NCBI GenBank assembly: GCA_951406725.2
Contig: OX597831.1
Coordinates: 6,758,001 to 6,822,000 of the forward strand
Reading direction: 5' to 3'
DNA from: Octopus vulgaris
Lineage: Eukaryota
Length of the DNA stretch: 64,000 bases
Shown here: piece by piece, positions 35,943-37,745 of the stretch
Layout: every line of letters begins with the position of its first letter
Position numbering within the stretch: position 1 is the stretch's first letter
The notes under the pieces: generated by a model
Told to the model about the DNA's origin: nothing
Seen by the model: the letters and a program-made list of their open reading frames with translations, nothing else
Database searches by the model: none
Made by a program: the position numbers and the translations under genes

Positions 35943-37745
35943 ATGCCACCGATAAGAAAGCATCTCTACCGTAAAACAGAAAGCCGAGAATTCCGTCTAC
36001 CTGGATACGAGTTCTTAGGACCAGGTACAAATATATGCAAAAGGCGATACGACACTCCATTGAATGCATTAGACACAGCTGCCAAAGCACTTGACATCGA
36101 CTACGCCGATCCTTATAAAGGCACTTGGGAGGCAGACATCAAAAACGTGTTACCACAAGGTCCAACCGGTATCCTCGCCGCAGCAGCAATTACTGCAAAA
36201 CATTATCTCGGACTTGATAACAAATTCAGAAAAACCAACAATAACGATAATACTCCTGTCGATATTAATAATCATTGCGATCGCAAAAACATGGCTGACA
36301 ATCAAGAAACTTCGTCAGAGTCCCAGCCGTCAAACGGATGGGCAGGAACATCACATGGAACTCCAGTCCCCCCTCGGAGCGACAATTTCATGAGAGAATA
36401 TACAATCAAGAGAACATTCCGAAACATGGTCAAAACAACTAATATGAACGGTGCTAAAGTTACATTTCAACAATTTCAAGGCAATGAAAAAGGTTGCCAT
36501 CAAGTAGGCCACTACTACTACGGTACAGTTTCATCGGAGGACTACATTATCCCTTACTGGCTAACAAGTTGGATCAAGCCCATACACTTCGAACAAAGCA
36601 TCAAAACAGCAACCTCATACAGGATCAAATCTATAGGTTTTGAAATAACTGACATTATCGGAGGCGAGTGGACTACACAAAAAAACGAAGAGGTGTTCAT
36701 GCAGAGTCCATATCCTTACTTCGAGTTGTTCAAAGACACAGGATGTTAAATAGGACACGGCAACCTCAAATCCATCTCACATATACCAAACGATGGGTTC
36801 GCATCTATACAACCAGATACGCCAACTCAACTAGAACTTCCAAAGTATACGTTCGCTTACTGCGCACCGAAGCAATACGTAAACGAAATTAAAAGTTGCG
36901 ACAAATTAACTACAGACACAACATGCGAAACAAACATTACAAAGCTTCATGACTGGAGAGAAATGCCAAACAAGTTAAAAATACACCAAGGCGATACATA
37001 CGGACATATGTGGGAAAACCCGTCTCGGTTAAAAGTGCCACTCACTAACATATCTCAGAATGATAACGACACGGTTCACGGGGTGATTCTCCACTATTGA
37101 CAATCAGTTAATTCACAAACGAGCATGGGTTTCCCGTACACATGGGACGGGTGCCTTGACATTGCAACTGCACCCGAACTCGGTGTGGAAGGACAAGTGC
37201 ATCACGAGAGCTTCGGTGAAACTAGAAAAAGAAAACGTAAAGGAAACAAAGAAGACTTGTGCTATACTGAATACTCCGACATGAATTTCGATCATCAACA
37301 ACCAGTCAAAGAAGCAGACGGAACGGAAAAAATTAGGAGCGGAAACATGGTAACAGCTAACAGGACATTGATAAACAAAGTGCTTTACACTTCAGAAGAT
37401 CCGCCTCCAATGATACTGATAAATGTCCCACCTATCGTTAGACTAAACGGAACTAAAGCACAAACCTACTTCAACTTTGACATCACTTACACCATTCAAC
37501 TGGAGGCGTACTACGAGGCTATGGTACACCCACAAAAAGTAGCTACGATCAATCCTAGAGTCGCTCAAAAAGCTACTTACACAGGATTTAATTACGATTT
37601 GTTCTGCGCCACGCCGCCCCCAGCAAGGCATTTGCACGGTGTCGCCCCTAAAGGGAAACGTCACGGAAGAACTGCTTTTATGGATGCCGAATCATCTGGT
37701 GCGAACGTACTGAAACCCTTAAGTGGCCACTTCGTCAACAAGTGA
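35943..37745 (+). pseudogene. Endogenous parvovirus/densovirus capsid gene (VP1 with PLA2 domain)
   Basis: LPGYEFLGPGT..PLNALDTAAKALDIDY..EAD..AAAITAKH is the Parvoviridae VP1u PLA2 signature (Ca-loop xLGPG plus DxxAxxHDxxY, here H>L). ORFs 35943-36749 and 37125-37745 and the sequence between them are in one frame: 600 codons with stops at 36747-36749 (TAA) and 37098-37100 (TGA). Likely VP2 start MADNQETSS at 36291. Confidence 0.88.

Follow-up and report, generated by a model that had tools for sequence, protein, structure and literature searches.

An endogenous parvovirus in the octopus genome with the capsid gene upstream of NS1

The window, i.e. the whole 64,000-nucleotide stretch of Octopus vulgaris DNA analyzed here, contains the left part of a parvovirus genome that is fixed in the germline and is now decaying. 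The elements of this insert are arranged in the order structured end, TATA box, capsid gene (VP1), spacer of about 100 nt and start of NS1. This capsid-first linear layout appears to be native to an undescribed parvovirus lineage of coleoid cephalopods (probability of about 0.7), and the lineage is a probable member of the Parvoviridae that lies outside the layout of the described subfamilies. If native, a capsid-first genome with both genes on the same strand would be an exception to the NS-left rule, would probably represent a lineage at the subfamily level and would bear on the interconversion of monosense and ambisense genomes. The novelty lies in the layout: endogenous parvoviral fragments are common, and those from cephalopods were listed in 2016.

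A preliminary description had presented the capsid gene alone. The viral insert actually spans positions 35771-38590, ends with the first 74 codons of NS1 and is flanked by two copies of a 323-nt host sequence. The features are as follows.

35450..35772, plus strand: left member of the pair of 323-nt host repeats; the 5'-truncated LINE entered by the virus begins in the final ~27 nt of this copy
35771..35870, plus strand: structured left end of the insert (a small stem-loop and a long imperfect hairpin), from folding
35902..35909, plus strand: TATA box (TATAAA), 41 nt 5' of the VP ATG
35943..37745, plus strand: VP1 capsid frame, full length, 600 codons with two stops
35988..36110, plus strand: PLA2 domain of VP1u (PF08398), with Leu in place of the catalytic His
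36291..36293, plus strand: internal ATG, Met117, with a Met within one column in 3 of the 3 intact relatives
36387..37544, plus strand: capsid core, a single jelly roll interrupted by long insertions (residues 149-534 of the predicted model)
36747..36749, plus strand: first in-frame stop (codon 269), not in the three runs covering the site
37098..37100, plus strand: second in-frame stop (codon 386), common to run X2 (none of the 15 differences of the X2 contig falls there)
37224..37241, plus strand: basic RKRKRK patch, in a low-confidence loop of the model, aligned with the RKRMR patch of the intact relatives
37746..38271, minus strand: 5'-truncated LINE inserted later, its (ATT)n tail abutting the VP stop; runs X8 and X12 lack it (joint 37702 to 38272)
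38272..38367, plus strand: spacer of ~100 nt between VP and NS1, free of structure; TATGAA lies 40 nt upstream of the NS1 ATG
38368..38590, plus strand: 5' end of NS1, 74 codons up to the right junction, where the gene is truncated; 69 aa align to P0155 with 51% identity (E 2e-23)
38591..38884, plus strand: right copy of the host duplication, from the repeat comparison with the left copy
38885..39267, plus strand: remaining part of the host LINE interrupted by the insertion, with a terminal (ATT)n

The window VP was searched against 5.8 billion proteins, and 3 of 3116 candidates were returned, all from Logan. These unnamed, intact proteins (P0002-P0004; 608-621 aa, on contigs of 4470, 4409 and 3807 nt) are 41-45% identical to the window VP over its whole length, and the alignment of the four sequences runs from MPPIR through the final FVNK with zero frameshifts. 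Because both ends are common to the window VP and the three relatives, the VP gene is full length and unshifted. Translation and this alignment bear out the single frame with two stops and no frameshift of the preliminary description, and the upstream TATA, the internal ATG and the basic motif reported there were likewise recovered. The TATA box is a presumed promoter; TATA boxes also lie 5' of the VP start in three other copies in the genome (L030, L036 and L037). On sequence grounds, Met117 is the likely start of the major capsid protein, and the basic patch is a possible nuclear localisation signal.

The PLA2 domain is recognized by PF08398 on residues 16-56 (28.7 bits versus the curated cut-off of 23.9). 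The earlier claim of an N-terminal PLA2 holds for the domain but not for its catalytic His. Both motifs were detected in 16 proteins, and HD is present in 14 of these, the two exceptions being the window copy and a 100%-identical fragment. The term ‘near-intact’ that was applied to the gene fits the VP frame only: the PLA2 has lost its His, NS1 lacks its greater part and the sister alleles are frameshifted. PLA2 is the sole Pfam domain of the window VP, with no Pfam capsid family matching the rest of the protein, and a PDB sequence search with the window capsid gave no matches. Since the Pfam capsid families miss the capsid, the VP and NS1 profiles constructed in this analysis offer a means of detecting such viruses in data from octopus, cuttlefish and squid, aquaculture samples among them.

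For structure prediction, an alignment of 89 rows was drawn from the best 150 of the 303 proteins found by a profile search at E ≤ 0.001. The resulting model has a mean pLDDT of 64.9, with much of the core confident (an earlier model from a 4-row alignment, with a pLDDT of 32, was not used). When this model was compared with 48,161 solved chains, all 20 matches at Z ≥ 8 were parvovirus capsids, the top one with Z of 16.2, rmsd of 4.0 and 243 aligned residues; the next unrelated row has Z of 6.4. In the Foldseek searches of PDB and BFVD, every named row among the matches listed is a parvoviral protein. In the Atlas, the top rows for the lineage are Cossaviricota capsid and NS1 clusters, and an intact VP relative is closest to the Cossaviricota capsid clusters (0.95). 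The window VP is therefore predicted to have the parvoviral single jelly-roll capsid fold, which agrees with the capsid identity proposed in the preliminary description and with the jelly roll that it had expected from a fold comparison.

The NS1 part of the insert is short, and most of the evidence on this gene comes from its relatives. The SF3 helicase domain (PF01057) scores over the cut-off in two members of the lineage, P0155 and P0160, and in the genome copy P0154. One NS1 relative, P0210, is 642 aa long and is encoded on a contig of 5245 nt. All four near-full-length NS1 relatives that were checked contain, by pattern, the HUH and the Walker A, B and C motifs, and three of the four the Tyr motif; none of the Pfam NS1 N-terminal families, Rep_N included, matches the NS1 relatives. 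A comparison of the NS1 profile with solved structures yielded 10 matches, namely, nine chains of Rep or replication proteins and one NS1. All three named relatives among the NS1 matches are cephalopod gene models, two of them from cuttlefish, in line with the cephalopod association suggested before; no named viral NS1 was among the search results, and the NS1 tree comprises only cephalopod-type and unnamed rows. A search for an NS1 SF3 helicase elsewhere in the genome had been suggested, and such copies were found, with at least 8 matches to PF01057 and at least 32 to the full NS1 query; the capsid query gave at least 14 matches, which include eight places outside the window. The designation ‘densovirus’ is not supported: NS1 is encoded on the VP strand, not in the ambisense arrangement, and its matches among solved structures are mostly Rep chains. 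An assignment of 38268-38590 to the C-terminus of NS1 was rejected, given that this segment matches the N-terminus of full NS1.

Because the LINE at the VP stop is missing in X8 and X12, VP and NS1 are natural neighbours with a short spacer. The spacer shows no hairpin (fold z of +1.45), and its length, judged by eye at four loci, is roughly 30-100 nt. The spacer of the window together with the NS1 start aligns with the equivalent segment of L030 with a score of 64.5, above all 500 shuffles (maximum of 58.5).

The order of the two genes was assessed by scanning 24 ten-kb stretches of the genome with the VP and NS profiles. Strong matches to both genes were obtained in the window, L030, L031 (with its near-identical duplicate L032, the two being counted as one event) and L037. 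In all four, VP precedes NS on one strand, the reverse of the customary layout with NS on the left and VP on the right; VP and NS share a strand at all two-gene loci, and none has the opposite strands of the ambisense organization. NS is found upstream of VP in none of the six independent loci with the N-terminal part of VP, VP is found downstream of NS in none of the six with the C-terminal part of NS, and an NS-to-VP junction occurs in none of the 24 stretches scanned. At L079, a weak VP end lies just 5' of the NS1 start (E of 0.003 in one search, under the threshold in the 24-stretch scan), and this locus was kept separate from the strong ones. A weak VP match in L041 (E of 5e-4), a locus of another NS1 lineage, is probably spurious and was left out of the count. 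Among 204 database proteins, two match both profiles, P0111 and an Octopus bimaculoides gene model, both with VP followed by NS.

All the evidence on gene order comes from integrated copies with deletions, which are common in this lineage (L030, L031, P0111) and which, being internal in the first two, disturb the VP-NS1 junction there. Among the NS1 matches listed (10 clusters opened), none could be placed on the contigs of the three intact VPs. The capsid-first order repeats across viruses that are only about 40% identical in VP. In a quick VP tree (25 rows, many of them fragments), the five genome copies that could be placed fall into three separate clades, which argues against a single rearranged insertion that was copied around.

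The left end of the insert is structured: the fold z of its 100 nt is -4.9, and none of 200 shuffles is equally stable. Over 79 nt, it shares 91% identity with the beginning of another insertion, on contig C23, which is 72% identical to the window insert overall and starts within 2 nt of the same point; the pattern of the left-end stem-loop occurs twice in the genome. The structured left end is likely to be a remnant of a telomere or an origin. Among the four copies that were folded at this end, two are structured, and the structure is weak or absent in L030 (z of -1.65) and L037 (z of -0.43). A right-hand telomere was looked for in the stretch after NS1 in one copy, L030, and that stretch is unstructured (z of 0.28). 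A spike in depth at 35690-35799 is most likely due to a common piece of LINE (35748-35768) rather than to the viral end.

These observations bear on how far the order seen in the copies reflects that of the virus. One alternative is a circular single-stranded DNA genome (origin, VP, NS1, origin) whose copies open at a structured origin, so that VP merely appears first. It would account for the shared starting point of the window and C23 copies at a structured element and for the lack of a second telomere after NS1 in the one copy folded, and integrated copies do not distinguish a linear end from an opened circle. Circularity is nevertheless unlikely: nicks in rolling-circle replication fall in the loop, and these copies begin just 5' of the stem; no locus continues from the end of NS1 back into the left-end sequence; and the Parvoviridae are defined as linear in the available sections of a 2024 review (PMC11357303). 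If the genome were circular, it would link the circular Rep-encoding single-stranded DNA viruses with the linear parvoviruses, and the virus would possibly still circulate as the intact relatives on the 3.8-4.5 kb contigs.

Quite unlikely, too, is a normal NS-then-VP genome the copies of which derive from head-to-tail concatemers or circularised intermediates, with the telomeres lost at the junction. Concatemers are normal parvoviral intermediates and deletions are common in these copies, but such an origin predicts that the NS-to-VP junction is the commonest, and not one is seen in the 24 stretches. Furthermore, the structured end lies 5' of VP rather than in the spacer, VP is preceded by its own TATA box in four copies, and the spacer stays short across the same divergent viruses.

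Under the native capsid-first layout, a terminal promoter would drive VP1, with its PLA2 for endosome escape, and the shorter major capsid protein from Met117, whereas NS1 would be transcribed from a second promoter, located in the spacer, and would carry out rolling-hairpin replication of the genome. The possession of two promoters would free the VP and NS cassettes from a fixed order.

With respect to the host, the 323-nt sequence has two matches in the genome, both at the insertion. Its two copies are identical in 287 of the 294 aligned letters (7 differ), which corresponds to a divergence of 2.4%, and their alignment contains one 29-nt gap. Since the left copy stops ~27 nt into the truncated LINE, the remainder of which follows the right copy, the virus most likely entered at a break in the LINE. 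Presumably, viral DNA was passively captured at a DNA break 27 nt inside this LINE copy, with the duplication of 323 nt of upstream host DNA, shortly before the split of four related host populations or species; a second LINE would have inserted later at the VP stop in two of the four hosts. The (AAT)n found 3' of the VP stop is the tail of this later insertion.

The insertion is a germline endogenous viral element that occupies one host site in four organism labels. Among the 24 listed sequencing runs, 20, from 10 studies and with four organism labels, contain the stretch or part of it. Four runs, one per label (X2, X7, X8 and X12), were compared in detail, and in each of them contigs bridge the left host junction, as expected for the germline fossil joined to host flanks that had been postulated. 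By hand-summed counts, the divergence from the window is ~0.9% for X2, which has the same organism label as the best-matching run, and 2.1-2.3% for X7, X8 and X12. One host site in four labels, together with a divergence of 0.9-2.3%, implies that the insertion slightly predates the split of these hosts. Assuming neutral substitution at 2-4e-9 per site and year, its age is roughly 3-6 million years, an uncalibrated value. X2 and X7 carry the LINE at the VP stop and X8 and X12 do not, in agreement with the shared indels; the element is a clean host-group marker. The shared insertion, the 323-nt duplication and the later LINE jointly provide a datable and phylogenetic marker for the host group.

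The window copy most likely has no function. It is very unlikely that the host retained the capsid gene for a function of its own (domestication or antiviral defence), even though the window haplotype has no frameshift over 600 codons and has kept the promoter. Compared with X2, 7 of the 18 classed substitutions are synonymous (11 non-synonymous), as compared with about 21% of the sites; the hint of constraint is slight and unconvincing, the numbers being too small to demonstrate selection. On the other side are the two stops, one of them common to X2, several frameshifting indels in X8 and X12 and the lost PLA2 His; moreover, judging by the divergence of the flanking duplicates, the insertion is young, so that an open frame may survive by chance. 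No RNA run is on record as containing the stretch; X2, which is merely guessed to be RNA, spans the host flanks too. A Polinton- or adintovirus-type PLA2 gene, an assembly artefact or a contaminant is hardly conceivable: PF08398 is also found outside parvoviruses and the rest of the protein matches no Pfam capsid family, but Polintons and adintoviruses have a stand-alone PLA2 beside a double jelly-roll capsid, pPolB and an integrase, whereas here one protein combines the PLA2 with a parvoviral single jelly roll and is followed by NS1, and the left host junction is bridged in 4 of 4 runs, so that the two findings named beforehand as speaking against a parvoviral fossil, a missing parvoviral fold and missing host flanks, are the opposite of what was obtained.

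Among the known systems, the monosense Parvovirinae (AAV, bocaviruses, human parvovirus 4) resemble the window in the capsid fold (Z of 14-16) and the PLA2-bearing VP1u, and the lineage in the NS1 with HUH and SF3 domains and in the location of both genes on one strand. The lineage differs from them in the reversed gene order, the capsid that is only 9-15% identical, the invertebrate host and the NS1 that matches neither Rep_N nor another N-terminal Pfam family. The ambisense Densovirinae, in which VP is driven from a terminal promoter, share with the lineage the invertebrate host and PLA2 but differ in that here NS1 is on the VP strand, and their structural scores are lower (Z of 9.6-11.2). 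Inversion of the NS cassette in an ambisense ancestor would yield the capsid-first layout, which is speculation.

In the available sections of the 2024 review, all parvoviruses are stated to encode NS on the left, and the words ‘cephalopod’ and ‘octopus’ do not occur (PMC11357303). The Penaeus monodon metallodensovirus, a divergent parvovirus of an aquatic invertebrate with a genome of 4.4 kb, was accepted, according to the same sections, on the strength of its SF3 helicase and capsid structure; its Z to the window VP is 11.7, but it belongs to a different sequence family, and no capsid-first order is stated for it there (PMC11357303). An unassigned megaparvovirus-like lineage of viruses and endogenous elements, as outlined in the accessible text of a 2026 paper (PMC13426907), has a PLA2-containing structural ORF upstream of NS1. 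In those viruses, however, the capsid VP is downstream of NS1 and has no PLA2, whereas here the whole PLA2-plus-capsid gene is upstream.

The earlier statement that no well-described parvovirus of octopods is known requires qualification: parvovirus-related fragments from Octopus, Sepia and Euprymna are listed in the accessible part of Francois et al. 2016 (PMC5013282), where mollusc sequences branch outside the known genera, but these are only short fragments. The entries in question measure 0.5-0.8 kb, and the accessible part gives neither a complete capsid nor a gene order, a site of insertion or an age (PMC5013282). The NS fragments of Sepia officinalis and Euprymna scolopes in that listing resemble the window NS1 lineage, in a comparison by eye only (PMC5013282). 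In the freely available literature covered, neither a capsid-first parvovirus nor these elements were found to be described. Scanning viral contigs with the VP and NS1 alignments gave 141 and 45 pattern matches, and scanning metagenome contigs with VP gave 218, none of which was confirmed.

Five loci of the genome carry endogenised copies of another parvoviral NS1 lineage that is very distant from the first (L039, 3800-5400; L041, 2800-5500; L043, 4100-5150; L044, 4500-5450; L040, 6590-7000). By eye, it resembles Octopus bimaculoides KOF81493 from the 2016 supplement, and the VP profiles gave no convincing capsid match beside it. L040 contains pieces of both NS1 lineages 1.3 kb apart (4446-5265 and 6592-7001), a possible cluster of endogenous viral elements or piRNA cluster. 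L031 and L032 (G000 C20, ~18 kb apart) form a near-identical tandem segmental duplication with a decayed VP-NS1 copy, the VP of which is interrupted by its own LINE-like insertion.

Elsewhere in the window, a Pfam search of 124 other frames gave two weak LINE matches, one spurious match and no host gene domain. The LINE matches (RVT_1 and zf-RVT, both weak) come from a decayed element on the minus strand (30031-31324), and the spurious weak one from an open frame in a minisatellite of 18 copies of a 45-nt unit (39524-40324). A 42-nt tandem array lies at 13520-13823, a MITE-like element with inverted arms of 56 nt (93% complementary, spaced by 96 nt) at 33703-33910, and a 657-nt (TAT)n microsatellite immediately to the left of the insertion (34694-35350). 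In another viral copy, L033, adjacent VP pieces lie on opposite strands (4453-5376), a local inversion.
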